From positions 1-28,175 of the forward strand of contig JAQSWC010000005.1 in assembly GCA_029266815.1 (NCBI GenBank): a stretch of DNA of 28,175 bases. The letters run 5' to 3'. The position numbers and the translations under genes are program-made. The notes below the pieces were generated by a model, which saw only the letters and a list, made by a program, of their open reading frames with translations, was not told the origin of the DNA and did no database searches. Of the stretch, positions 4,870 through 28,068 are shown in pieces. The DNA comes from Paucimonas sp. (GTDB lineage: Bacteria > Pseudomonadota > Gammaproteobacteria > Burkholderiales > Burkholderiaceae_D). Positions within the stretch are counted from its first letter, which is position 1. Every line of letters begins with the position of its first letter.

Positions 4870-6201
4870 ATGGGAACCATTCGCGTCTCCAATCTGGGAA
4901 AGGCATATAAGCAGTACCCAAATCGCTGGTCGCGCCTGGTCGAATGGATCTCGCCTTTCCGTGTTAAACGACACGAGCTGAAATGGGTACTGAAAGATAT
5001 CAACTTCAATATTGCCCCTGGCGAATCGGTCGGCATCATCGGCTATAACGGCGCCGGCAAGAGCACGTTGCTCAAACTGATTACCGGAACTAACCAGCCC
5101 ACCTGCGGCGAGGCCTCGGTAGAGGGGCGCGTCGCTGCCCTGCTTGAACTCGGCATGGGCTTTCATCCTGACTTCACCGGTCGTCAGAACGCCGTCATGT
5201 CAGGCCAGTTGATGGGGCTTAGCGTGGAAGAAATAACTGCGTTGATGCCTCAAATTGAATCCTTCGCCGAGATCGGCGATTATATAGACCAGCCGGTACG
5301 CGTATATTCGAGCGGCATGCAGGTCCGCTTGGCGTTCGCCGCCGCGACTGCAGTGCGGCCCGACATACTGATCGTGGACGAGGCTCTCGCGGTTGGCGAC
5401 GTTTTCTTTCAGCAGAAATGCTTCGAGCGCATTCGCAGTTTTTGCGAGGCCGGCACTACGCTGCTGTTTGTCTCGCATGCAATGAGCGTCGTGTATTCAC
5501 TATGCGACCGCGCAATAATGATTGATGGTGGCCGTCTCGAAATTGACGGCTCACCGCGTGAAGTCATCGACCTCTATAACGCAAAAGTGCTTCAGCGCCA
5601 AAACGGCGCGGATCACGACATGCAGATCGTTACCGGCCGCCACGAAGCCCGGGAAAATGAAACGCCTACGTCATCCGAAGAGCCGCTAGTCGAGATGGAC
5701 GTACCCGATGCACCGGCGATCGGCTCGTTTTCCTCACAAGGCGTGACAATACGTGCAGTGGAAGTGCTGGCCGGTGGCCGCCCGGTGTCAGCGGTTGTCA
5801 GCGATTCTGATGCCACTGTCCGGATCCAGGTGCAATTCGATCAGTCATTCTCCGATCCGCACGTCGGCTTCCAGATTCGAAATGCGATGGGCGAGGCCAT
5901 ATTCATGACCAATACTTATTGCATGCATCGCTCGATCGGTGCGGTGCATGCAGGCGATGCAATTACGATCGAGTTCTCATTCAAGGCCGCTCTGTCACCA
6001 GGAGACTATACGGTGACTACCGGAGTTGCAGACGGCGGGGTGGGCGAAACAACCTTTCGCCGGACGCTGGCACGCTTGCAGGATGCGAGAGCATTCACGA
6101 TACTGAGAAACCTGGATGCAATCCTCTGGCATGGGATCTGCAATCTCGATCCAACCTGCAAGGTCCGACGCACAGGCAGAGAGGCGCCGCATGACGCGTG
6201 A
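4870..6201 (+). CDS. wzt: Polysaccharide ABC exporter ATP-binding subunit with C-terminal Wzt_C carbohydrate-binding domain
   Basis: Walker [10 protein letters not shown], signature [12 protein letters not shown], Walker B LIVDEAL. Wzt-type N-terminus ([13 protein letters not shown]) and C-terminal beta domain ([18 protein letters not shown]). Confidence 0.92.
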
Positions 6202-16066: not shown

Positions 16067-18283
16067 ATGTCAAAGCCACAATTTTATCAGCAGGCCGATA
16101 TTCTGCCGCCTTCCGCTTCCGCAGTTACCAGCTTCCGAAACTCTTTCGCTTTCTTCTTCCTGCTGTCCACCTGCGTCCTGCTGGTAGCGTGGCGCTCTTT
16201 TCATCTCACGGCCGAGACGCTGGGTGTCCCCTTCACCTATCAGGAAGGCGATGTGGTCGTCGTGCTCATGCACATCAAGGGTTTGCTTCAGGACGGCTGG
16301 CCGACGACAGTCTCACATCTGTCTGCCCCCTTCGTCTATCCAGCCGCTGCCTTTCCACATATGACCAGCACCGACTGGCTGGTCATGAAGGCCATTTCCT
16401 TCTTCACTTCGGATCCGGGGCTTGTCCTCAATGTGTTCTTCCTTTTCACACTGGTGGCAAGTGCATGGTCTTCCGCATACGCTGCATACCAATTGCGCCT
16501 GTCGCGCGGCGTCGCGTTCGGCATAGGCGTGCTGTATGCCTTCCTGCCCTTTGCGTTGATCCGCAACGTCCATCATCTGAACCTGGTCTACTACCTCGTC
16601 CCACTGCTATGTCTGCTGGCAGTCGTCATAGCAGGGCGTGGTGAAGGAATACGCTATCCGAGGCAAGCAACATTCATTGGACTCGCCGCCTGCTGTGCAC
16701 AGGGTTTTGATTACATCTATTTCAGCTACTTCGCTGCCCTGCTGTTCGGCGTCGCTGCACTAATTGCTTGGCGGCGTGGCGAGAGGGCAGCACTCAGGCT
16801 CCCTTTGTTGGCCATAGCGCTCATCTGCGTTTCGACGGCAATTAACCTCTTTCCCGCCTATCGTAGCTGGCAGGCTGAAGGAAAACCGCCCGAGATGGGA
16901 TACAAATCGATTGCGGAAGCGGAAGTCTACGGTGCCAAGCTCCGCCGCATGATTGCGCCCCACCCCGACAATCCCGTGAGACCCTTGGCAAAATATGCGA
17001 AACGTGACAATCATGCCGGCTTCCCGATTGAAAACGAAAATGTCACTGCACGCCTAGGCCTGTTTGCAGCCTTCGGACTGCTTGTGGTCCTGTTTTCCCT
17101 GCTCCGTACTCACGCGGTTCGTGAGCAGCCCGAACGAGCTGTCCATACGCTTGCTGTGGTGACGTTCCTCGTTATCACTGTCGGTGGACTGGGCGCAGTC
17201 ATCAATCTCGTTGGCACGCCGGATATACGAGCCTACAACCGTTTCTCCGTCTACCTGGCATTCCTTGTCCTGGCTGCAGCCGGATTTTGGCTACAGCGCA
17301 GATTTCTCAGCCCGCATCGTTGGCGTCGGCTTTCCGCTTATGCACTGGCAGGTAGCTTCGCTTTATTCAGCCTCTATGACCAACTACTCGATGCACGTTT
17401 CTTCGTAGCGAAACAGGGCGAGAATTTAACGCGCATAAAAGGCGAAAAAACCGCGGTACAAAATCTGGAGCGGGCCTTACCCGACAACGCTGCAGTTCTG
17501 CAATTACCTCTTACCGGTTATCCCCCTATCCATGTCTTTCATCAGATGCTTTCGTACGACCATGGCCGGCCGGCGATATGGTCTACGCGTCTACGGTGGA
17601 GTTGGCCGTCGCTAACCGAACGCCATCGCTCGTGGCAGAATCGGCTGGCCGCACTTCGAGGGATTGCATTTTTGGAAGGCGCCGCATTGTCCGGCTTTGA
17701 TGCAATCTGGATCGACCGCGCGGCGTATGCTGACAGCGGGCAGAAGCTACTGGCCGATCTCCTCCATGAACACGTGCGGAAAATCGATACCGGCAACGAA
17801 CGGTATATAGCGCTCGACTTGCGCGCCTACTCTGCCACGCTAAAGACTGACATGGGCGAAGCCACTTTCCGCGAACAAGCAAAAGTTCTCTTGGGTAACG
17901 ACATGCTAGTTAAGTGGGCCAAGGGATTTTACGATGAAGAACGTAACCAGGAAGGGCGTCCTTTCCGCTGGGTGAAAAACAAGGCAGACCTCATTGTTCA
18001 CAATGCAGGCGATAATCACGCCGCCTCCTGCATCAGCTTCGCCGTTGCGGCGCCGCACTCAGGAATAATTGAAGTCAGCGGGGCAAACGCTCCCATGAAA
18101 ATTGACGCCACGGCAGTGCCTCAGCCAGTACGTATTTCGGTGCATCTCGAATCAGGAGCGTCTCGTCGCCTTCGGTTCTCAACTGGCATACGGAGGCTGG
18201 ATGCGCCTGGCGACCCAAGAGAGCTATATTTTTTCGTCATGGATTTCACTATGACACCGCAAACCTGCAGGAATGAAACATGA
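16067..18283 (+). CDS. Polytopic membrane protein, putative GT-C-fold (GtrC/YfhO-like) glycosyltransferase
   Basis: About 11-12 hydrophobic segments, an acidic loop after TM1 (QEGD), motifs IRAYNRFSVY, LYDQ, QLP...YP and LRWS, and a large C-terminal periplasmic domain. Heads an operon containing gtrA/gtrB-like genes. Confidence 0.6.
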   Translation: MSKPQFYQQADILPPSASAVTSFRNSFAFFFLLSTCVLLVAWRSFHLTAETLGVPFTYQEGDVVVVLMHIKGLLQDGWPTTVSHLSAPFVYPAAAFPHMTSTDWLVMKAISFFTSDPGLVLNVFFLFTLVASAWSSAYAAYQLRLSRGVAFGIGVLYAFLPFALIRNVHHLNLVYYLVPLLCLLAVVIAGRGEGIRYPRQATFIGLAACCAQGFDYIYFSYFAALLFGVAALIAWRRGERAALRLPLLAIALICVSTAINLFPAYRSWQAEGKPPEMGYKSIAEAEVYGAKLRRMIAPHPDNPVRPLAKYAKRDNHAGFPIENENVTARLGLFAAFGLLVVLFSLLRTHAVREQPERAVHTLAVVTFLVITVGGLGAVINLVGTPDIRAYNRFSVYLAFLVLAAAGFWLQRRFLSPHRWRRLSAYALAGSFALFSLYDQLLDARFFVAKQGENLTRIKGEKTAVQNLERALPDNAAVLQLPLTGYPPIHVFHQMLSYDHGRPAIWSTRLRWSWPSLTERHRSWQNRLAALRGIAFLEGAALSGFDAIWIDRAAYADSGQKLLADLLHEHVRKIDTGNERYIALDLRAYSATLKTDMGEATFREQAKVLLGNDMLVKWAKGFYDEERNQEGRPFRWVKNKADLIVHNAGDNHAASCISFAVAAPHSGIIEVSGANAPMKIDATAVPQPVRISVHLESGASRRLRFSTGIRRLDAPGDPRELYFFVMDFTMTPQTCRNET

Positions 18284-19278
18284 ACCTGAAATCGAAGAAA
18301 GTGCTGGTTACCGGAGCCGACGGCTTTATCGGAAGCCATCTTGTCGAGGCGCTGTTGACACACGGCTGCGATGTCCGCGCATTCGTTTACTACAACTCGC
18401 AGAATAGTTGGGGCTGGCTTGACACTCTGCCTGCCAAAGTCACGCGTACGCTCGATGTATTTGCCGGTGATATACGTGACCCCAATGGTGTGCATGAAGC
18501 GATGGCCGGCTGTGACGTTGTATTTCATTTGGCTGCACTGATTGCAATCCCGTTTTCCTACCATTCGCCAGACTCCTACATCGACACGAACATCAAGGGA
18601 ACTTTGAACGTGCTGCAGGCGGCACGGCGTCTGGGGACGGAGCGCGTATTGCTGACATCAACTTCCGAAGTCTACGGCACCGCGCAATATGCCCCGATCG
18701 ATGAAAAGCATCCTTTTCAGGGCCAGTCGCCCTATAGCGCCACCAAGATCGGTGCAGACCGGCTCGGTGAGTCGTTCTACCGCTCGTTCAATACGCCGGT
18801 CGTCATTGTTCGTCCTTTCAACACCTACGGCCCGCGCCAATCCGCGCGTGCAGTCATCCCGACAGTTATCACGCAACTCCTTTCCGGACAGACCGAACTA
18901 CGCCTGGGTAGTCTGACGCCGACACGTGACTTCAACTACGTAAAGGATACAGCCGCCGGCTTCGTCGCCCTGGCGGAGTCGGATGCCGCCGTCGGCAAGG
19001 AAGTCAATATTGCCACCGGTGTTGAGCACACGATCGGCGACACCGCCAGGATATTGATCGAAGAACTAAATCCGGAAGCGCGCATCGTCACCGATGAGCA
19101 ACGCCTTCGCCCTGATGCTTCCGAGGTCTTCCGCCTGATCGGCGACAACACTCAAATCACCACGCTGACGCCGTGGAAACCGCAGTACGACCTGCACGCG
19201 GGCCTACGCGACACCATCGCCTGGTTCCGTCAGCCTGAGAACCTGGCCCGCTACAAAGCCTGGTTATACAACCTGTAG
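18280..19278 (+). CDS. legB: NAD-dependent nucleotide-sugar 4,6-dehydratase, LegB-like
   Basis: GADGFIG, YNSQNSWGWLD, HLAALIAIPFSY, TSTSEVYG, YSATK and RPFNTYGPRQSARAVIP. Confidence 0.78.
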   Translation: MNLKSKKVLVTGADGFIGSHLVEALLTHGCDVRAFVYYNSQNSWGWLDTLPAKVTRTLDVFAGDIRDPNGVHEAMAGCDVVFHLAALIAIPFSYHSPDSYIDTNIKGTLNVLQAARRLGTERVLLTSTSEVYGTAQYAPIDEKHPFQGQSPYSATKIGADRLGESFYRSFNTPVVIVRPFNTYGPRQSARAVIPTVITQLLSGQTELRLGSLTPTRDFNYVKDTAAGFVALAESDAAVGKEVNIATGVEHTIGDTARILIEELNPEARIVTDEQRLRPDASEVFRLIGDNTQITTLTPWKPQYDLHAGLRDTIAWFRQPENLARYKAWLYNL

Positions 19279-19290
19279 GAGCTTTAACTC

Positions 19291-20001
19291 ATGAGAGCAA
19301 TCATCCTTGCAGGCGGTAAAGGCACTAGGCTACGCCCATACACGACGCTGATTCCCAAGCCGCTGGTGCCGCTCGGCGGCAAGTACTCGATCCTCGAGAT
19401 CATCCTGATGCAGCTGAAGCGCAACGGCTTCACGCACGTCACGCTCGCGGTCAACCATCTGTCGAACCTGATTATGGCTTACTTCGGCGATGGCAGCAGG
19501 CTGGGATTGAAGCTTGACTATTCGCTAGAGGAAGGCGAACTTAGTACGATTGGCCCACTGACGCTGATCGACGATCTGCCAGAAAATTTCCTAGTGATGA
19601 ACGGCGATATCCTGTGTGATCTCGACTATCGTGCGTTTTTCAGTCGCCATATCGAGACAGATAGCCAAATCTCCGTGTCCGCCTTCCGGCGGCAGGTCAA
19701 GATAGATTTCGGTGTGCTGCGCTACGATGAATCGGGGCGATTGACAGCCTTCCAGGAAAAACCGGTCTACGATTTCGACGTCAGCATGGGTATCTATTGC
19801 ATCAACCGCGCTGTGATAGAGGCACTGCCCCGAGGCAAGACCTATGGTTTTGACAGCCTGATGATGGATGGACTGGCACGTGGACAACGCATCGATATCC
19901 GGCCTTTCTCGGGTTACTGGCTAGACATCGGCCGTCCTGATGATTATCAGCACGCGGACGAGAATTTTGACGAATTGTCGGCGAAACTGGGCATCGAGTG
20001 A
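19291..20001 (+). CDS. Sugar-1-phosphate nucleotidyltransferase (guanylyltransferase-like, no CBS domains)
   Basis: ILAGGKGTRLRPYT..PKPL, VMNGD, FQEKP and WLDIGRPDDY. AGGAG SD. Confidence 0.88.
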   Translation: MRAIILAGGKGTRLRPYTTLIPKPLVPLGGKYSILEIILMQLKRNGFTHVTLAVNHLSNLIMAYFGDGSRLGLKLDYSLEEGELSTIGPLTLIDDLPENFLVMNGDILCDLDYRAFFSRHIETDSQISVSAFRRQVKIDFGVLRYDESGRLTAFQEKPVYDFDVSMGIYCINRAVIEALPRGKTYGFDSLMMDGLARGQRIDIRPFSGYWLDIGRPDDYQHADENFDELSAKLGIE

Positions 20002-20864
20002 TGCAGACCGTATTAGTTACCGGCGCATCCGGTGCACTCGGCCAAGCGGTGATGCGCCGCTTGCGGGAAGATGCCAACTGCCGTTCTGTTGCTGCCAGCC
20101 GATCCAGCGACGATGTGGCACTCGACCTATGTGATCCTGCGCAAATATCCGCAGTAATCGAGCGGGTTCGTCCCAATCTAGTCTTGCATCTGGCGGCAGT
20201 CTTCGGCGACGATTTCGAACTTGCATACGCGGTTAATGTCGAGGCGACTCGCCGGCTGCTGACGGCGGTCTACGAAGCCAGCCCGGCAACCCGCATCGTA
20301 GTAGCCGGGTCGGCCGCCGAATACGGCGTCATTCGCCCGGAAGAAAACCCGGTCCGGGAAGACCGTGTACTTGCGCCGGTGTCGACCTATGGCCTGACGA
20401 AGGCTTGGCAAACGCAACTTGCAGGGCTGCATGCAAGTCGCGGCGCGAATGTAGTCGTTGCCCGCATTTTCAATCTTGTTGGACCGGGGATGTCCGAGCG
20501 TCTGTTTATCGGCCGGGTGCAAAAACAGATCGGCGAAGTGCTGAACGGATATCGCTCCGCAATCGAGCTGGGACCCCTCGACGCGATAAGGGACTATGTG
20601 TCTACGGACGATGCCGTCGACCAACTTCTTGCAATTGCCGCGCACGCTGAACCAGGAAGCGTGCATCATATCGCCAGCGGTATTCCAGTTTCGATGCACG
20701 AACTGCTTCGCCGGCTGCTGGAAAAAAGCGGACTGGACATGACAATTGTCCGCAGTTCGAATGCCTCAACCAATCGCACCGGCTACGATGTGCCGGAGAT
20801 CTATGCCGACATGACCCGAACTATGAAACTGATGAATCTTTGGAGGTCTCGTGCCGAAGCTTAA
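20001..20864 (+). CDS. NAD(P)-dependent 4-keto-6-deoxy-sugar reductase/epimerase (RMD-like extended SDR)
   Basis: GASGALG, GSAAEYG, YGLTK and RIFNLVGPG. TGATG coupling supports ATG 20001 over GTG 19998. Confidence 0.75.
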   Translation: MQTVLVTGASGALGQAVMRRLREDANCRSVAASRSSDDVALDLCDPAQISAVIERVRPNLVLHLAAVFGDDFELAYAVNVEATRRLLTAVYEASPATRIVVAGSAAEYGVIRPEENPVREDRVLAPVSTYGLTKAWQTQLAGLHASRGANVVVARIFNLVGPGMSERLFIGRVQKQIGEVLNGYRSAIELGPLDAIRDYVSTDDAVDQLLAIAAHAEPGSVHHIASGIPVSMHELLRRLLEKSGLDMTIVRSSNASTNRTGYDVPEIYADMTRTMKLMNLWRSRAEA

Positions 20865-21837
20865 GCTCACCGTCATCGCACCCGTTTTCAATGAAGAACA
20901 AGTGATCGCGCACTTCCACGCACGCACACACGCCGTGCTCGACACCCTCGACGATGTCGACGCAAAGATCCTGTACGTGCTCGACAAATGCACCGACAAT
21001 ACCTTGGAAGTGCTGCGCAACTTGGCAAATGGCGATGCGAAGACCCGTGTGATTGCCCTGTCATCGCGCTTCGGCCACCAGATGTCGCTGCTGGCCGGTA
21101 TTGAAAACGCGCTCGATGCTGATGCCATCGTAATGATGGATAGTGATCTTCAACATCCGCCGGAGTTGATTCCCGAGCTGATCGGCAGATACCGCGAAGG
21201 CCACGACGTCGTCTATACCATACGCCGCGACACAGAAGACGCCGGCCTCCTGCGCAAGGCGGCCGGCAACCTTTTTTACCGGGTGCTCCGCACGCTGTCG
21301 AAAGTGCCGATCAACGCGAATGCTGCCGACTTCCGCCTCATTTCCGCCCGAGTCGCACGCTGTCTGGCCAGCGGGTTCCGGGAGCGGAACATGTTCCTGC
21401 GCGGCGTGTTCTCGTGGATGGGATTCAAACAATCCTCCGTCGAATACATTGCGGAAAAGCGTTTCGCCGGAAAATCAAAGTACTCTTTCTCCCGGATGAT
21501 GCAACTCGCGACCGCCGGTATCCTGTCGTTCAGTACTAAGCCATTACAGGTGGGCATGTTCGTCGGCATCGGGTTTGCAGTGCTGGCCTTCTTTTTCATG
21601 CTGGGTGCAGTGGTCAATTATTTCATCGACCAGTCACTGCCCAGCGGCTGGACAACTGTGGTCTCGCTACTGCTGCTGTTTAGCGGCGTGCAGCTGATCG
21701 TGCTCGGCACCATGGGTGCCTACATCGGCGCGATCTACGAAGAAGTCAAGGGGCGGCCACGTTACATCATTGAGGAGGAGATCGTGCACCATGAGGCGGT
21801 CGCGTTACATCATCGAATAGGAGAACGCGCATCATGA
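20851..21837 (+). CDS. gtrB: GT2 polyprenyl-phosphate glycosyltransferase, GtrB-like
   Basis: PVFNEE, SSRFGHQ..L.AG, MDSDLQHPPE, DFRL, two C-terminal TMs and GAYIGAIYEEVKGRPRYII. GGAGG SD. Confidence 0.88.
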   Translation: MPKLKLTVIAPVFNEEQVIAHFHARTHAVLDTLDDVDAKILYVLDKCTDNTLEVLRNLANGDAKTRVIALSSRFGHQMSLLAGIENALDADAIVMMDSDLQHPPELIPELIGRYREGHDVVYTIRRDTEDAGLLRKAAGNLFYRVLRTLSKVPINANAADFRLISARVARCLASGFRERNMFLRGVFSWMGFKQSSVEYIAEKRFAGKSKYSFSRMMQLATAGILSFSTKPLQVGMFVGIGFAVLAFFFMLGAVVNYFIDQSLPSGWTTVVSLLLLFSGVQLIVLGTMGAYIGAIYEEVKGRPRYIIEEEIVHHEAVALHHRIGERAS

Positions 21838-22517
21838 CCGAGCCGGTAGACTTCGACCAATATGTCGGTAACTACAACCAACTTCTGCGTGATCAGACCA
21901 GCTTCTTTTCGCCTAGCGAAGAGTATTTCGCACGCTACAAAGTAGATATCGTACGCAATCGTGTCCGGAGTCCGGTGCAGCGCGTACTTGAATACGGCTG
22001 CGGCATCGGACGCAATATCCGTTTTCTGCGCAACGCTTTCCCTGAAGCAGAGATCGTGGGATCCGACATTTCCTGCGCCAGCTTGGAAGTGGCACGTAAG
22101 GAGAACGCCGGCGTCCAGTTCCTTGAAGAGCACAATGGCATGGCATCGCCTGGCCAGTTCGATGTCATTTTCGTCGCCGGGGTGTTCCATCATGTGCCGC
22201 CACCGCAGCGCGAGTCAGTATCGAAGACGCTGATGGATCGGTTGGCACCCGGCGGCAAAGTTTTCGTCTTCGAGCACAATCCCTATAACCCAGTGACGCG
22301 CCGAATTGTCAACACTTGTCCCTACGACGCGGATGCGGTTTTGCTCAAGCCGGCCGAACTCAAACGTACGCTGAAGAACGCCGGCATGACGCTGGAGAAG
22401 CAAGCCTATTGCCTATTCGTCCCGCCCAGCCTGCCGGCATTGAGGGGCCTGGAAAGACATCTCGGATGGCTTCCACTTGGCGGGCAATACTGGGTGCAAG
22501 CATGTCGGCCACGCTGA
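21834..22517 (+). CDS. Class I SAM-dependent methyltransferase
   Basis: VLEYGCGIG, FDVIFVAGVFHH and EHNPYNP. ATGA overlap with gtrB. Confidence 0.85.
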   Translation: MTEPVDFDQYVGNYNQLLRDQTSFFSPSEEYFARYKVDIVRNRVRSPVQRVLEYGCGIGRNIRFLRNAFPEAEIVGSDISCASLEVARKENAGVQFLEEHNGMASPGQFDVIFVAGVFHHVPPPQRESVSKTLMDRLAPGGKVFVFEHNPYNPVTRRIVNTCPYDADAVLLKPAELKRTLKNAGMTLEKQAYCLFVPPSLPALRGLERHLGWLPLGGQYWVQACRPR

Positions 22518-22912
22518 ACCAGCTTTTTCGTTACGTCTCGGTAGGCGTACTGAATACGTTGCTGGGATATTGCGTCATCTTCGCTTGCATGTATCTCGCG
22601 AAGATGTCGCCAGAAGCCAGCAACGCAGCGGGCTATGCGGTAGGCCTTGTCCTGTCCTACGTTCTGAACCGGAATTTCACTTTCCGAAGCACCCAAGCCA
22701 AAAGAAGGGAAGCTATTAAGTTCATCTCGGTCTTCGCATTCGCTTACGCACTGAACTACTTGGCGCTGCTGATGTTTGTCTATGAATTCAGTGTGAACAA
22801 GGGCGCGAGCCAAGTACTCGCAGGCGTCGTCTACGTCGGCGCCTCTTTTCTGATGAACAAATACTTCGTGTTCTCTACTCAAAATGTGAAGCCGGAAAAG
22901 CCATTTGGCTGA
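22502..22912 (+). CDS. gtrA: GtrA-family small flippase-like membrane protein
   Basis: QLFRYVSVGVLNTLLGY, SNAAGY, SYVLNRNFTF and FLMNKYFVF; four TMs, 136 aa. Start trimmed to ATG 22502. Confidence 0.9.
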   Translation: MSATLNQLFRYVSVGVLNTLLGYCVIFACMYLAKMSPEASNAAGYAVGLVLSYVLNRNFTFRSTQAKRREAIKFISVFAFAYALNYLALLMFVYEFSVNKGASQVLAGVVYVGASFLMNKYFVFSTQNVKPEKPFG

Positions 22913-22979
22913 TCCTGCAGCCAGGATAGCGACCTGATACGTATCATTGTCGCGTGTTTTTCGGAGGAATTCCGTATCC

Positions 22980-23861
22980 ATGCACACTTCCTACATCGGC
23001 CGCTTTGCACCTTCTCCAACAGGACCGCTGCACATGGGCTCTCTTGTTGCGGCAATGGCCAGCTATCTGGATGCAAAGGCGCACAAGGGAGAATGGCTGG
23101 TGCGGATCGAGGATGTCGATGGCGCGCGCACCGTTGCCGGCGCAGCCGAGGACATCCTGCGTGCACTGTCGATACTGGGGATGTGTTGGAACAGTGAAAT
23201 AGTCTGGCAGAGCAAACGCTATTCACTATATGAGGCGGCTCTTGGACAACTTGGCGATCACATATATGCCTGCGGCTGTACGCGACGTGAAATCGCTGAT
23301 TCAAGACTAGGTATAGGAACCGACGGCAGCGCAATCTATCCCGGTACGTGCCGCAAAGGTCTTGCAGTTGGTAAAGCAGCCCGAGCGCACAGACTGCGCG
23401 TGCCGGACACCAATCAGAAAGATGAATGTATTCGTTTTCAAGATCGCTGGAGGGGCGAGGTTGTTCAGCATCTAGCCGTCGAATGCGGCGATTTCGTGCT
23501 GAGACGGGCCGACGGCTTCTGGGCATATCAGTTGGCAGTAGTGGTCGACGACGCAGACCAGGGGGTTACACATGTTGTACGCGGCATGGATCTGATCGGC
23601 TCCACTGCACGACAAATCTATTTGCAGCGCCTCCTCGCTTTTCATACACCTGAGTATATGCACGTACCCGTCGTAACCAACGCTGCCGGCGAGAAGCTAT
23701 CAAAGCAAACAGGTGCAGCACCACTCGACTTGTCCAATCCCGTAGAAACACTGGCGAATGCCGCGCGATTCCTCGGGCTCGATGTGGCGGAAACAACTTC
23801 AACGGAAGCATTCTGGAACGAAGCTACCCAGCAGTGGGCAACTCGTTTTGAAATACGCTAA
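22980..23861 (+). CDS. gluQ: tRNA glutamyl-Q(34) synthetase
   Basis: GRFAPSPTG.LHMGS, RIED, zinc motif CGC-x20-Y-x3-C, YQLAVVVDD and KLSKQ. No anticodon-binding domain. Start at ATG 22980 after GGAGG. Confidence 0.93.
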   Translation: MHTSYIGRFAPSPTGPLHMGSLVAAMASYLDAKAHKGEWLVRIEDVDGARTVAGAAEDILRALSILGMCWNSEIVWQSKRYSLYEAALGQLGDHIYACGCTRREIADSRLGIGTDGSAIYPGTCRKGLAVGKAARAHRLRVPDTNQKDECIRFQDRWRGEVVQHLAVECGDFVLRRADGFWAYQLAVVVDDADQGVTHVVRGMDLIGSTARQIYLQRLLAFHTPEYMHVPVVTNAAGEKLSKQTGAAPLDLSNPVETLANAARFLGLDVAETTSTEAFWNEATQQWATRFEIR

Positions 23862-23871
23862 AGCGTAGCGA

Positions 23872-25293
23872 TTAACGTTTGGGCAGGCCGCCGAGCAGTG
23901 CTGCGGTCTTCGCTTTTTGCGGCTTTGCAGATGGAGACTTGGTGTCGGATTTCGCTTCAGGCTGGGCCTCATCCGGGTTGGACGGTTCGTAAGGTTTGAG
24001 AAACCAGGGATCAACCTTTTCCTTACGGGGAGAAACAGCAGCCGATGTGCGCGGCGACCGTACGCCACGATCGTTTTCCCGCAAGCTTCGTGCAGGCCGC
24101 TCCGGACGCAAATCAAGCCCTTCAATCTGTATCGGAATCAGCTTCTGCTTGATCAGTTTTTCGATATCAACCAGAAGACGCGCATCTTTGTCGGTCAGCA
24201 GCGAAATCGCGTCTCCGGAAGCACCTGCTCGGCCGGTACGACCAATGCGGTGCACATAATCCTCGGCGTTGTACGGCAAGTCAAAGTTAATCACACAGGG
24301 AAGCTCTGCGATGTCGAGTCCGCGCGCTGCAACGTCTGTTGCCACCAGTACCTCAATCTCGCCGCGCTTAAAAGAATCAAGTGCAGCCATCCGTTCCGCC
24401 TGAGACCTGTCGCCATGGATGGCGGAGGCCTTGATACCTTCCACCATGAGTTGGCGCGCCAATCGCGACGCACCGATCTTGGTATTGGAAAAAACGATCA
24501 CCTGCTTGAGATTGCGCTCGCGGATGATATGCGCGACCGCCGCGCGCTTGGCTTCCTCTTCCACCTTGTAGACGATCTGCGTGACGTTGTCCGCCGTCGC
24601 ATTACTGCGTGCAACTTCGATCAACACGGGGCTTTGCAGGAAACTGTTGGCGAGCTTCTTGATTTCTGGCGAGAAGGTCGCGGAGAACATCAGGTTCTGC
24701 CGCTTCTTGGGCAACAGATTGATGATGCGCTGCAGGTCAGGCAAAAAGCCCATGTCCAGCATGCGGTCCGCTTCGTCCATCACGAAGATTTCGGTCTGCG
24801 ACAGGTTCAATGTCTTCTGCTGCACATGGTCCAGCAGGCGTCCGGGCGTGGCTATCACGATTTCGACGCCGCCGCGCAAGGCTGCAGTCTGTGGCGTCAT
24901 GTCGACACCACCAAATACTACGGTCGATCGCAGAGGCGTATGGCGGGAATAAGCCTTGACGTTCTCGGCCACCTGGTCGGCGAGTTCGCGCGTAGGCGTC
25001 AGAATCAGGGCACGTACCGGATGCCGCGCAGGAGAAGCACTGGCGTTTGCATGCGCCAACAGCTTCTGGATGATGGGGAGCGAAAAACCGGCCGTTTTTC
25101 CGGTGCCCGTCTGAGCCGCGCCCATCACGTCCCGGCCTTGCAATACGATGGGAATTGCCTGCGCCTGGATCGGCGTCGGATGGACGTAGCCCTGATCCGT
25201 TAAAGCACGCAAAATCTCGGCAGACAATCCGAAGTCTTGGAAACGGATCGCCGGCGCGATAGTTTGAGTGGTTTCTGGCTGAGTATCAGGCAT
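23872..25293 (-). CDS. rhlE: DEAD-box RNA helicase, RhlE-like
   Basis: Q motif PTPIQ, AQTGTGKT, PTRELA, TPGRLLDH, DEAD, SAT, HGD, ARGLD and HRIGRTGR. Confidence 0.88.
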   Translation of the reverse strand: MPDTQPETTQTIAPAIRFQDFGLSAEILRALTDQGYVHPTPIQAQAIPIVLQGRDVMGAAQTGTGKTAGFSLPIIQKLLAHANASASPARHPVRALILTPTRELADQVAENVKAYSRHTPLRSTVVFGGVDMTPQTAALRGGVEIVIATPGRLLDHVQQKTLNLSQTEIFVMDEADRMLDMGFLPDLQRIINLLPKKRQNLMFSATFSPEIKKLANSFLQSPVLIEVARSNATADNVTQIVYKVEEEAKRAAVAHIIRERNLKQVIVFSNTKIGASRLARQLMVEGIKASAIHGDRSQAERMAALDSFKRGEIEVLVATDVAARGLDIAELPCVINFDLPYNAEDYVHRIGRTGRAGASGDAISLLTDKDARLLVDIEKLIKQKLIPIQIEGLDLRPERPARSLRENDRGVRSPRTSAAVSPRKEKVDPWFLKPYEPSNPDEAQPEAKSDTKSPSAKPQKAKTAALLGGLPKR

Positions 25294-25299
25294 GGTAAC

Positions 25300-25378
<79 letters not shown>

Positions 25379-25408
25379 GTTTCCCTTCGTGCGAGCAATG
25401 CCCGCTTG

Positions 25409-25436
25409 AAAAAACAGGGGCGGAAAAATTTCCGCC
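25409..25436 (-). terminator. Intrinsic terminator after rpoD
   Basis: GGCGGAAA-TT-TTTCCGCC inverted repeat followed by CCTG-TTTTTT on the minus strand, starting 15 nt after the rpoD stop. Confidence 0.7.
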
Positions 25437-25451
25437 GCCAATGTTAAACGA

Positions 25452-27923
25452 TTAACTGCCTTCAAGGAAGCTCTTGAGCTTGTCGGAGCGTGACGGATGC
25501 CGCAGCTTGCGCAGCGCCTTGGCTTCTATCTGGCGGATGCGCTCGCGCGTGACATCGAACTGCTTGCCGACCTCTTCCAGCGTATGGTCGGTTGACATCT
25601 CAATGCCGAAGCGCATGCGCAACACCTTGGCTTCGCGCGGTGTCAACGAGTCCAACACATCCTTGACCACGCCGCGCATCGATGCATGCAATGCTGCATC
25701 AGAAGGTGCCAGCGTATTGTTGTCCTCGATGAAATCGCCGAGATGCGAATCGTCGTCGTCGCCGATGGGAGTTTCCATCGAGATCGGCTCTTTCGCGATC
25801 TTCATGATCTTGCGGATCTTGTCTTCCGGCATGTCCATCTTGACAGCCAGTGTCGCCGGATCCGGCTCGGCGCCGGTTTCCTGCAAAATCTGGCGCGAGA
25901 TGCGGTTCATCTTGTTGATCGTTTCGATCATATGCACCGGAATACGGATGGTACGCGCCTGGTCCGCGATGGAACGCGTGATCGCCTGGCGGATCCACCA
26001 TGTCGCATAGGTCGAGAATTTGTAGCCGCGGCGATATTCGAACTTGTCCACCGCCTTCATCAGGCCGATATTGCCTTCCTGGATCAGGTCGAGAAATTGC
26101 AGGCCGCGGTTGGTGTATTTCTTGGCGATCGAGATCACCAGACGCAGGTTGGCCTCGGTCATTTCGCGCTTGGCCTTGCGGGCCTTCATCTCGCCAGCGG
26201 ACATCTTCTTGTTGATATCACGCAGGTCAGGCAGCGGCAGCACCACGCGCGCCTGCAGGTCAATCAGTTTCTGCTGCAGTTCCTTGACGGTCGGAACGTT
26301 ACGGCCCAATACTGCGCTATAGCTGTTACCGGCGTTGACTTCGCCATCGACCCAATCGAGATTGGTTTCATTGCCCGGAAAGACCTTGATGAAGTGGTGG
26401 CGCGGCATGCCGCAGCGGTTGACTGCCACTTCCAGAATCTGCTTTTCGATATGGCGGACTTCATCGACTTGGCCACGCAGCGTATCGCACAGTTTCTCAA
26501 CGAATTTCGCAGTGAAACGGATGGAGAGCAGCTCGTCGGAGATGGCTTCCTGCGCCTTCACATAAGGTTTCGAGTTGTAACCCTCTCTCTCGAAAGCCTT
26601 GCGCATCTTGTCGAAGTTGCTGGCGATATTGCCGAACTTGTCGAGCGATTCACGCTTCAACTGTTCTAGCTGTTCGGCAGAGAACCCTGCGGCACCAGAA
26701 GCATTGTTTTCTTCTTCTTCGTCCTCTTCGTCTTCTTCATCCTCTTCGTCTTCATCATCGGAAGCGGCTGCGCCTGTCATTACCTGGTCCTGCTCGGGCG
26801 CATTGGGGTCGACCAGTCCGTCGACAATTTCATCGATCTTCAGGTCATCCTTCTCGATGCGTTCTGCGGCGGTAAGTATCTCGGCAATCGTCGTCGGGCA
26901 GGCGGAGATCGCCTGGATCATGTCCTTCAGGCCTTCTTCGATTCGCTTTGCAATCTCGATCTCGCCTTCGCGAGTCAGCAGTTCAACCGAACCCATCTCG
27001 CGCATGTACATGCGGACCGGGTCAGTGGTGCGTCCGAATTCGGAATCAACGGTCGACAGCGCAGCTTCAGCTGCCGCTTCGGCATCCTCATCCGTCGCGA
27101 CGCTCGGAACCGCATCCGACAGCAACAACGTTTCAGCATCGGGCGCTTGCTCGTAGACGGCAATGCCCATGTCGTTGAAGGTGCTGATAATGCCGTCGAT
27201 CGCTTCGGGATCAACAATGTTCTCTGGCAGATGGTCGTTGATTTCCGCATACGTCAGGAACCCCCGCTCCTTGCCGAGCTTGATCAGGTTCTTCAGCTTC
27301 AGGCGACGCGCCTCGATTTCCTCTTCGCTGGCCTCGGTATCAGACGAGAAAGCTTCTTTCAACAAAGCTTTTTCCTTCGCTTTACGATCCTTGGCACGCG
27401 CCTTATCCGCAGCCTTCAACTCTGCGCGCTCGACCGCATTCAGCGCGGCAACCTCATCATTCTCCGGTTGGAAATCCTTAGGCTTGCGACCGCGGCGGCC
27501 CGGCACCTTCACCGAAGGCAACACGTAAGTGGATGTGTCAATTGCAGCCAAAGCAGCGGCATCGGTTGTCTGTTTGACAGCCGAAACCACGCCTACCACC
27601 TTCTTTTCCGGCTGCGCCGCCGGCTTGGCAGCCTTGGCTACCGTTTTTGCATCAGATTTTTTATTGGTCACAGGAGTCTTCAATGGTGCGGCAGGCGCTT
27701 TTGCAACTGCCTTGGAAACAGGTTTTGCGTTGGATGGCTTGGCTGTCGTTTTAGTGCCCGCACTCACCACAGTTTTCGGCGTTGCCGCTTTCACCGGCTT
27801 GCTCGCCTTTGCCGGTACTGCTTTCTTGGCAATTGGTTTGGCAGCTGTTTTAGAAGCGGCTTTTTTTGCGGAGTTTGCCGAAGATGCCGAGGATTTTGTG
27901 GGTTTCTTCATTGCGTTCGCCAT
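25452..27923 (-). CDS. rpoD: RNA polymerase primary sigma factor sigma70
   Basis: Region 1.1 ([21 protein letters not shown]), 1.2 ([11 protein letters not shown]), 2 ([29 protein letters not shown]) and 4 ([16 protein letters not shown]). Start uncertain (27923 or 27911; the track gives 27962). Confidence 0.97.
26708..26760 (-). repeat. Low-complexity acidic (Asp/Glu) codon run in the RpoD non-conserved region
   Basis: Imperfect (TCT/TCC/TCG/TCA)n run encoding [17 protein letters not shown]. Confidence 0.8.
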
Positions 27924-28068
27924 GGAGTCAACTACCAACTGAATAAGCTCTTGCAGCAGCACAAGCTGCCAAATTGAGCGGTTGTTAGGCTTGTACAGCT
28001 ATGTCTAGGCAAGGCAGGATGTGCAAATTGCCGCCGAACCACGTAAGCCATTGAATCAAAAGCTTTTA

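Follow-up and report, generated by a model that had tools for sequence, protein, structure and literature searches.

The start of a DEAD-box RNA helicase gene directly behind a tRNA gene, found on the minus strand of the window (the whole stretch of 28,175 nucleotides analysed here), is judged from comparison with related genomes to be a real and conserved junction, and with a probability of about 0.55 the helicase start region constitutes a split ribosome-binding site with the whole tRNA as its looped-out part. One half of this putative site would be a purine motif located 5' of the tRNA, which may pair with UCCUUUC of the 16S rRNA tail or provide a single strand for docking. The AUG would form its counterpart, together with the unpaired 10-nt tail before it (ACCA and the 6-nt spacer). 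Once the acceptor stem folds, the tRNA would be looped out and the two halves would come to lie approximately 12–13 unpaired nt apart, and general ribosome geometry suggests that 10 nt may be the minimum tail that lets the AUG enter the ribosome while the stem stays outside. We infer that ribosomes would use such a split site on one transcript comprising the leader, the tRNA and the helicase.

The minus-strand order is rpoD, a 73-nt spacer, tRNA(CAU), 6 nt and the helicase ATG (Table 1). The sequence-only reading had placed this ATG 6 nt past the CCA of the tRNA, a geometry that was reproduced at 25300/25293; the letters after GGAGG (25311–25307) are CCC, ACCA (25303–25300), gttacc and ATG. 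Its statement that no alternative start of the helicase preserves the Q-motif region likewise held, the ATG being the first ATG/GTG/TTG in frame. The next candidate, a TTG at codon 23, would lose a conserved Phe preceding the Q motif, and homologs begin with M-[SPT]-[DE] at the position of the helicase ATG.

Table 1 Features of the rpoD–tRNA–helicase region in the window
Feature	Position	Strand	Evidence or remark
rpoD, primary sigma factor, upstream gene	25452..27962	-	ORF; NCBIfam RpoD above cut-off
Hairpin, U-run beginning a few bases past the stem; terminator-like here	25409..25436	-	U-run absent in most intact relatives
Short leader hairpin	25391..25406	-	Precedes motif in most intact junctions
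GAAGGGA, candidate SD or enhancer half of the putative split ribosome-binding site	25382..25388	-	16S-tail duplex -9.7 kcal/mol (predicted); GAAAG in most relatives
tRNA(CAU), inferred tRNA-Ile2, encoded CCA; proposed looped-out element	25300..25378	-	tRNA call, Rfam
Acceptor stem, 5' strand	25372..25378	-	Retained with compensatory changes in decayed copies
Acceptor stem, 3' strand	25304..25310	-	Closing point 10 nt 5' of AUG
Intra-tRNA GGAGG	25307..25311	-	Paired; 13 nt from ATG; mostly lost after release
Anticodon loop CATAAT	25337..25342	-	-10-like, no -35; duplicated 3' tRNA fragments in relatives begin here
6-nt spacer gttacc, CCA to ATG	25294..25299	-	Length conserved, letters variable
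DEAD-box RNA helicase, 473 aa, RhlE-like, below RhlE equivalog cut-off	23872..25293	-	ORF, profile match
gluQRS, convergent neighbour at helicase 3' end	22947..23861	+	ORF, profile match; context only

The tRNA was the only feature matched in Rfam. ARAGORN labelled it as Met, a label derived from the anticodon only. Besides the CAU anticodon it has G1-C72 (not of the initiator type), C4-G69 and C5-G68 and is linked to rpoD, and a separate elongator-Met-like CAU tRNA is encoded on contig C293. The three pairs and the rpoD linkage are presumably determinants pointing to tRNA-Ile2; because of them and of the separate elongator-type CAU tRNA, the identity is likely tRNA-Ile2. The tRNA is single-copy in all five genomes with the adjacent state that were checked, one of them closed. 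The helicase shares its DEAD and Helicase_C domains, both above the Pfam cut-offs, with the RhlE families NF007882, NF053710 and NF053711 (NCBIfam), which are its best-scoring families. Membership in the RhlE equivalog was rejected (538.6 bits against a curated cut-off of 743), and the protein is RhlE-like only. Elsewhere in the window, RpoD (27163–27962, minus strand) carries before its family match an N-terminal extension of approximately 200 residues, Ala/Lys/Pro-rich and histone-H1-like, with an uncertain start codon. On the plus strand, positions 18280–22912 hold a sugar-nucleotide and surface-glycosylation gene cluster with epimerase/dehydratases, a nucleotidyltransferase, a glycosyltransferase, a methyltransferase and a GtrA-like protein, as judged by eye from the translations.

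Non-conserved spacing had been named beforehand as grounds for abandoning a functional link, and the intact junctions speak otherwise: the distance from CCA to ATG is 6 nt in 26 of 30 distinct intact junctions from Oxalobacteraceae-like genomes and 7, 8, 10 or 4 nt in the others. The 4-nt gap belongs to the only junction found outside the family, and no gap within the family is shorter than 6 nt. The 6-nt gap is more than chance, since none of the other 21 tRNAs in this genome comes closer than 31 nt to an ORF and the 6 nt recur in 26/30 junctions. Conservation across Burkholderiales, proposed as a check, was found within the family and did not extend to the order, with a single case among 215 genomes searched from other families. 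Intact junctions are scattered on the helicase tree (14 changes), and in many other lineages the helicase still has recognizable tRNA remnants before it; the junction therefore probably goes back to the ancestor of the family, whose named relatives here are Noviherbaspirillum, Herminiimonas, Collimonas, Undibacterium and Herbaspirillum. A literature search, with most subscription papers outside its coverage, yielded no published description of a rpoD-tRNA-helicase junction. In the genome from another family (G057, L251/L274), the rpoD stop is followed by 13 nt, the tRNA, 4 nt and the helicase ATG, and the purine motif is absent; looping out of the tRNA would leave approximately 21 nt between the rpoD stop and the helicase start, an arrangement in which translation might be coupled across a tRNA. 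Several records titled Bifidobacterium, Bordetella and Duganella (L062, L094, L104, L063 and L066) contain helicases nested in unrelated Oxalobacteraceae lineages, suggesting mislabelled assemblies.

The purine motif, defined as G-A/G-A-A/G-G within 12 nt of the tRNA 5' end, occurs in 25 of 30 helicase-linked tRNA copies against 1 of 28 unlinked ones, counts that come from related genomes and include kin that are not independent, so that a Fisher test on them overstates significance. The motif thus follows the helicase and not the tRNA. Five intact junctions lack it, and it is found in none of the leaders of the other 21 tRNAs of this genome. Its usual form in relatives is GAAAG; here it is GAAGGGA, 88 nt upstream of the helicase start. 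The assertion that the only SD-like sequence lies inside the tRNA was thus not borne out, as GAAGGGA, 3 nt 5' of the tRNA, matches the 16S tail about as well as GGAGG does (predicted duplexes of -9.7 and -9.8 kcal/mol, respectively). GAAAG alone forms a weak duplex of about -5 kcal/mol, and the variants in the motif position (GAGAG, GAAGG, GGAGG, GGAAGG and AAAGGA) are all compatible with the 16S tail. This tail reads CACCUCCUUUCU in the 16S genes of 8 related genomes, 7 of which belong to the family, and a mature 16S tail of the length of CACCUCCUUUCU has been reported for Neisseria meningitidis (PMC6288834). With a crude start caller, pairing to UUU was supported genome-wide and the optimum spacing of GAAAG was 8–10 nt; the effective spacing between motif and AUG, 12–13 unpaired nt plus the helix width, lies 3–5 nt past this optimum (11 nt in T4 gene 25). 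A G pairing with the final C of the 16S tail showed no genome-wide enrichment (16/61 vs 19/48). Since such a G is not in excess and GAAAG binds weakly, a docking or enhancer role, as in thrS, appears as open as true SD pairing. No unpaired SD was found within the 10-nt tail before the helicase AUG. By inspection, the motif was rejected as a GNRA tetraloop, a T loop or a -35 box (no closing stem, no fixed -10), and pairing between leader and trailer was discarded for its weak and inconsistent A/U pairs.

The junction is disrupted in most genomes. There, the functional tRNA remains beside rpoD and acquires a terminator, unrelated cargo of 0.2–8.9 kb or more lies between tRNA and helicase, and the helicase acquires a TATAAT or TATACT box. 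Such loci represent a natural experiment, in which the parts that stay with the helicase show what the helicase needs. In 21 of 93 released loci, against 2.2 expected from shuffles, the motif is followed after 1–9 nt by a stem of 5 or more pairs that closes 8–14 nt before the ATG (retained tail 9–11 nt). A motif-blind version, in which the stem was chosen first and the search then extended 5', gave 34/133 vs 87/1646. In 38 dissimilar leaders, with the motif picked blind to pairing, 5' and 3' strands of the same leader pair at -7.3 kcal/mol compared with -4.9 ± 0.4 kcal/mol for swapped strands (0/400 permutations). When geometry sets the register, pairing is preserved in 22 of 31 double changes, among them C-G at -1/73, A-U at 1/72 and 2/71 and U-A at 4/69, whereas single-sided changes are mostly unpaired (11/50 paired) and some of them resemble register slips; counts made under a loosely defined register were noisy, at the level of chance (33/63 double, 25/154 single). 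The remainder of the tRNA is abandoned: the T loop survives in 3 and the anticodon loop in 1 of 35 decayed copies, and the leader interiors range from near-full tRNA length down to loops of 3–5 nt. None of 12 decayed leaders matched an Rfam covariance model (E up to 1). The route from a tRNA duplicate to a leader shows at an early stage in G083, where leader and tRNA are duplicated around a cargo gene and the helicase-side copy is decaying; this copy has kept the motif and gained a promoter-like box and is without GGAGG.

On the helicase tree, motif-stem leaders need 13 changes, at least 8 of them forced by strong branches. After phylogenetic correction, 3 independent pairs on strong branches remained, with the same direction in 2.3 of 3, which is not significant. 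The element is also dispensable, because a motif in range is missing from 93 of 166 released loci, 5 intact junctions lack it, one clade has a 24-nt arrangement free of an SD, and 11 loci carry GAAAG only 2–5 nt from the ATG. In this clade (L062, L063, L068, L077, L079, L082, L087, L092, L094, L104, L108 and L110), exactly 24 nt separate the end of an extended -10 box from the helicase ATG, giving a leader of about 17 nt that lacks an SD. The Noviherbaspirillum leaders (L031, L032, L035–L039, L041, L045, L048–L050 and L052) have a small covarying hairpin 13–14 nt before the ATG that resembles a collapsed acceptor stem; the strand preceding this hairpin is U-rich instead of purine, and several of these leaders carry GAAAG 4 nt before the ATG.

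Motif and stem could instead be signals for RNA processing or stability, namely a nuclease entry site ahead of the tRNA and a paired 5' end shielding the helicase mRNA, with translation initiating free of an SD from the A/C-rich 10-nt tail. Intact leaders end in an A/U-rich run, a sequence resembling RNase E sites, CCA remains in about half of the decayed copies, and the core SD is rare in any case: its 5-mer occurs in 9 of 92 released loci and in 342 of 1691 crudely called genes (about 20%) of this genome. This explanation is nonetheless rather improbable, given that decayed copies lose the A/U run after the motif and keep its two G ends, that the T loop read by RNase P is lost, and that a signal for tRNA processing would be expected to stay with the working tRNA, which the motif leaves.

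Somewhat less credible again is a history of tight packing and slow decay, in which an ancestral integration hot spot left remnants by descent and the helicase is initiated by ordinary SD-independent means. The site is clearly an insertion hot spot, with inserts of 0.2–8.9 kb and 3' tRNA fragments that start at the anticodon loop, i.e. at the putative integration point of the islands, being the left edge of the duplicated fragments in relatives. Only 49 of 401 family genomes match the pattern of a tRNA 3' end closely before an ATG (a few of them by chance; the unpublished genome G104 enters only tallies of this kind, and no claim depends on it), many lineages lose everything, independent contrasts are few, and a stem alone near the start, irrespective of the motif, is barely above shuffles (80% vs 66%). 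Such decay would, however, predict neither the paired double changes nor the pairing of each strand with its own partner, nor the loss of the interior while the ends are kept, nor a spacer of fixed length and free letters that never falls below 6 nt in the family.

The sequence-only reading had taken the intra-tRNA GGAGG as the SD of the helicase, exposed when the precursor unfolds. Its position was accurate: GGAGG lies in the paired T/acceptor stems, 13 nt from the ATG, with a predicted unpaired probability of 0.0–0.42 in the precursor. It pairs well with the anti-SD and is present in 22 of 23 intact junctions, and a few released leaders keep GGAGG at 12–15 nt. The sequence is, though, fixed by tRNA structure, and kept copies are often re-paired in a new stem. 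Genome-wide, the spacing of GGAGG peaks at 4–7 nt before starts and 13 nt is at background (crude start caller). One intact junction (L004) carries GGGGGG instead. Of 68 released remnants with a recognizable 3' acceptor strand, 53 have lost GGAGG, in several separate lineages via the same G-to-C change, GGGAGG to GGCAG. Loss in the remnants, background spacing and the GGGGGG junction together argue against GGAGG as an SD, and we consider this role very improbable. The retention of a closed acceptor-like stem with the upstream motif rather points to the folded state as the productive one, a polarity opposite to that proposed before.

Equally improbable is a promoter inside the tRNA (anticodon-loop CATAAT as -10, ending 43 nt before the ATG) that would yield a separate short-leader helicase mRNA: TATAAT lies at 46 nt in the released locus L053, where a T-arm remnant follows it, but CATAAT has neither a -35 nor an extended -10, the scan for this previously named objection detected no promoter-like site in the tRNA, TATAAT/TATACT boxes of released loci lie at 24–190 nt with no peak at 43, and the anticodon loop is retained in only one of the 35 decayed copies. 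Between rpoD and the tRNA, the window contains a weak terminator-like hairpin and no promoter was found. In L138 the rpoD stop lies only 18 nt from the tRNA, which favours one transcript from rpoD to the helicase. Assembled metatranscriptome contigs of relatives cross both the rpoD-tRNA and the tRNA-helicase boundary; these assemblies may hold DNA and cannot show one transcript, and they carry no weight in the reading given here.

If the helicase start is indeed a split ribosome-binding site, tRNA maturation would act on it. An RNase P cut at the tRNA 5' end, between motif and stem, would remove the motif, and 3' processing would remove the tail or the early coding region. As these cuts must remove motif and tail, the folded precursor would be the translated form; only folded, unprocessed precursor would be translated well, tRNA maturation would be the off step, and slower maturation would raise helicase output. 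We tentatively propose, as a possibility short of even odds, that the tRNA serves as a cis hinge: the helicase would be made only from folded, uncut pre-tRNA, the rate of maturation would set the level of this RNA-remodelling enzyme, and duplicates of the tRNA would repeatedly have been reduced to a new class of mRNA leaders built on the acceptor stem. The earlier proposal of competition between tRNA formation and helicase translation survives in part. A single-copy tRNA must be cut from the helicase leader and hence processing and translation must compete, while the exposure of GGAGG as an SD by unfolding was not upheld; the competition idea is retained here with the polarity of folding reversed and the SD relocated.

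Several known arrangements share features with the junction. The linkage of rpoD and ileX is familiar, and tRNA 3' ends serve as integration sites of islands. Similarly, tRNA(CAU) follows rpoD here, relatives carry duplicated 3' fragments of the tRNA that begin at the anticodon loop, and inserted DNA brings a terminator after the tRNA. In contrast to such sites, a protein-coding gene starts right at the empty site, and in many filled states leader and tRNA persist as an entire decayed copy, not just as a 3' fragment. In mixed operons of tRNA and protein genes such as thrU-tyrU-glyT-thrT-tufB, the protein gene has its own leader and SD. The helicase is likewise encoded behind a tRNA and would depend on tRNA processing, but only 6 nt separate CCA and AUG.

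The closest structural parallels come from translation. In T4 genes 38 and 25, a stem conserved across relatives shortens the gap between SD and AUG from 22 to 5 and from 27 to 11 nt, respectively (PMC3014915). As in these genes, a sequence complementary to the anti-SD lies far upstream of the helicase start, with a conserved, covarying stem in between. The helicase junction differs in that the looped-out part would be a whole, essential and functional tRNA of about 72 nt, itself excised from the RNA, that the effective gap would be 12–13 nt, and that the 16S tail would pair through its far 3' end. Escherichia coli thrS (Sacerdot et al. 1998, as described in PMC3858243) has a bipartite site with an SD beside the AUG, and its hairpin, which only mimics an anticodon arm, serves as the operator bound by a repressor. 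As described there, a tRNA-related structure shortly before the start divides the two single-stranded parts of the site, as would be the case here. Unlike thrS in that description, the helicase has no SD beside its AUG and no known repressor, and the structure is a real tRNA or an acceptor-stem remnant.

If true, a genuine bacterial tRNA gene would at the same time supply part of the start signal of an mRNA, and helicase synthesis would be tied to the speed of tRNA processing with no extra regulator. The series from intact tRNA via decaying duplicate to a 5-bp hairpin would make the origin of a regulatory leader from a tRNA traceable. The junction also tests the size of structure that the 30S subunit tolerates between SD and AUG, and the proposal is directly testable in cultured hosts of both states (Undibacterium with intact junctions; Herminiimonas, Collimonas and Herbaspirillum with decayed ones).

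In L284 (G002:C195, about 5230–5900), the 5' half of tRNA(CAU) occurs twice after rpoD and the second copy is interrupted at the anticodon loop by approximately 250 nt resembling an Azoarcus-type group I intron, with no Rfam match at gathering score. Two loci from two other families (L273 and L275) have a sequence like the 3' end of a group I intron at about 1380–1480, just before the anticodon loop and the 3' half of the tRNA, again with no Rfam match at gathering score. The inserts of L048–L050 carry cargo that includes a two-gene pair resembling a RES-type toxin-antitoxin module, and that of L070 (U. pigrum) contains a low-GC pair resembling a restriction-modification system, both as judged by eye.
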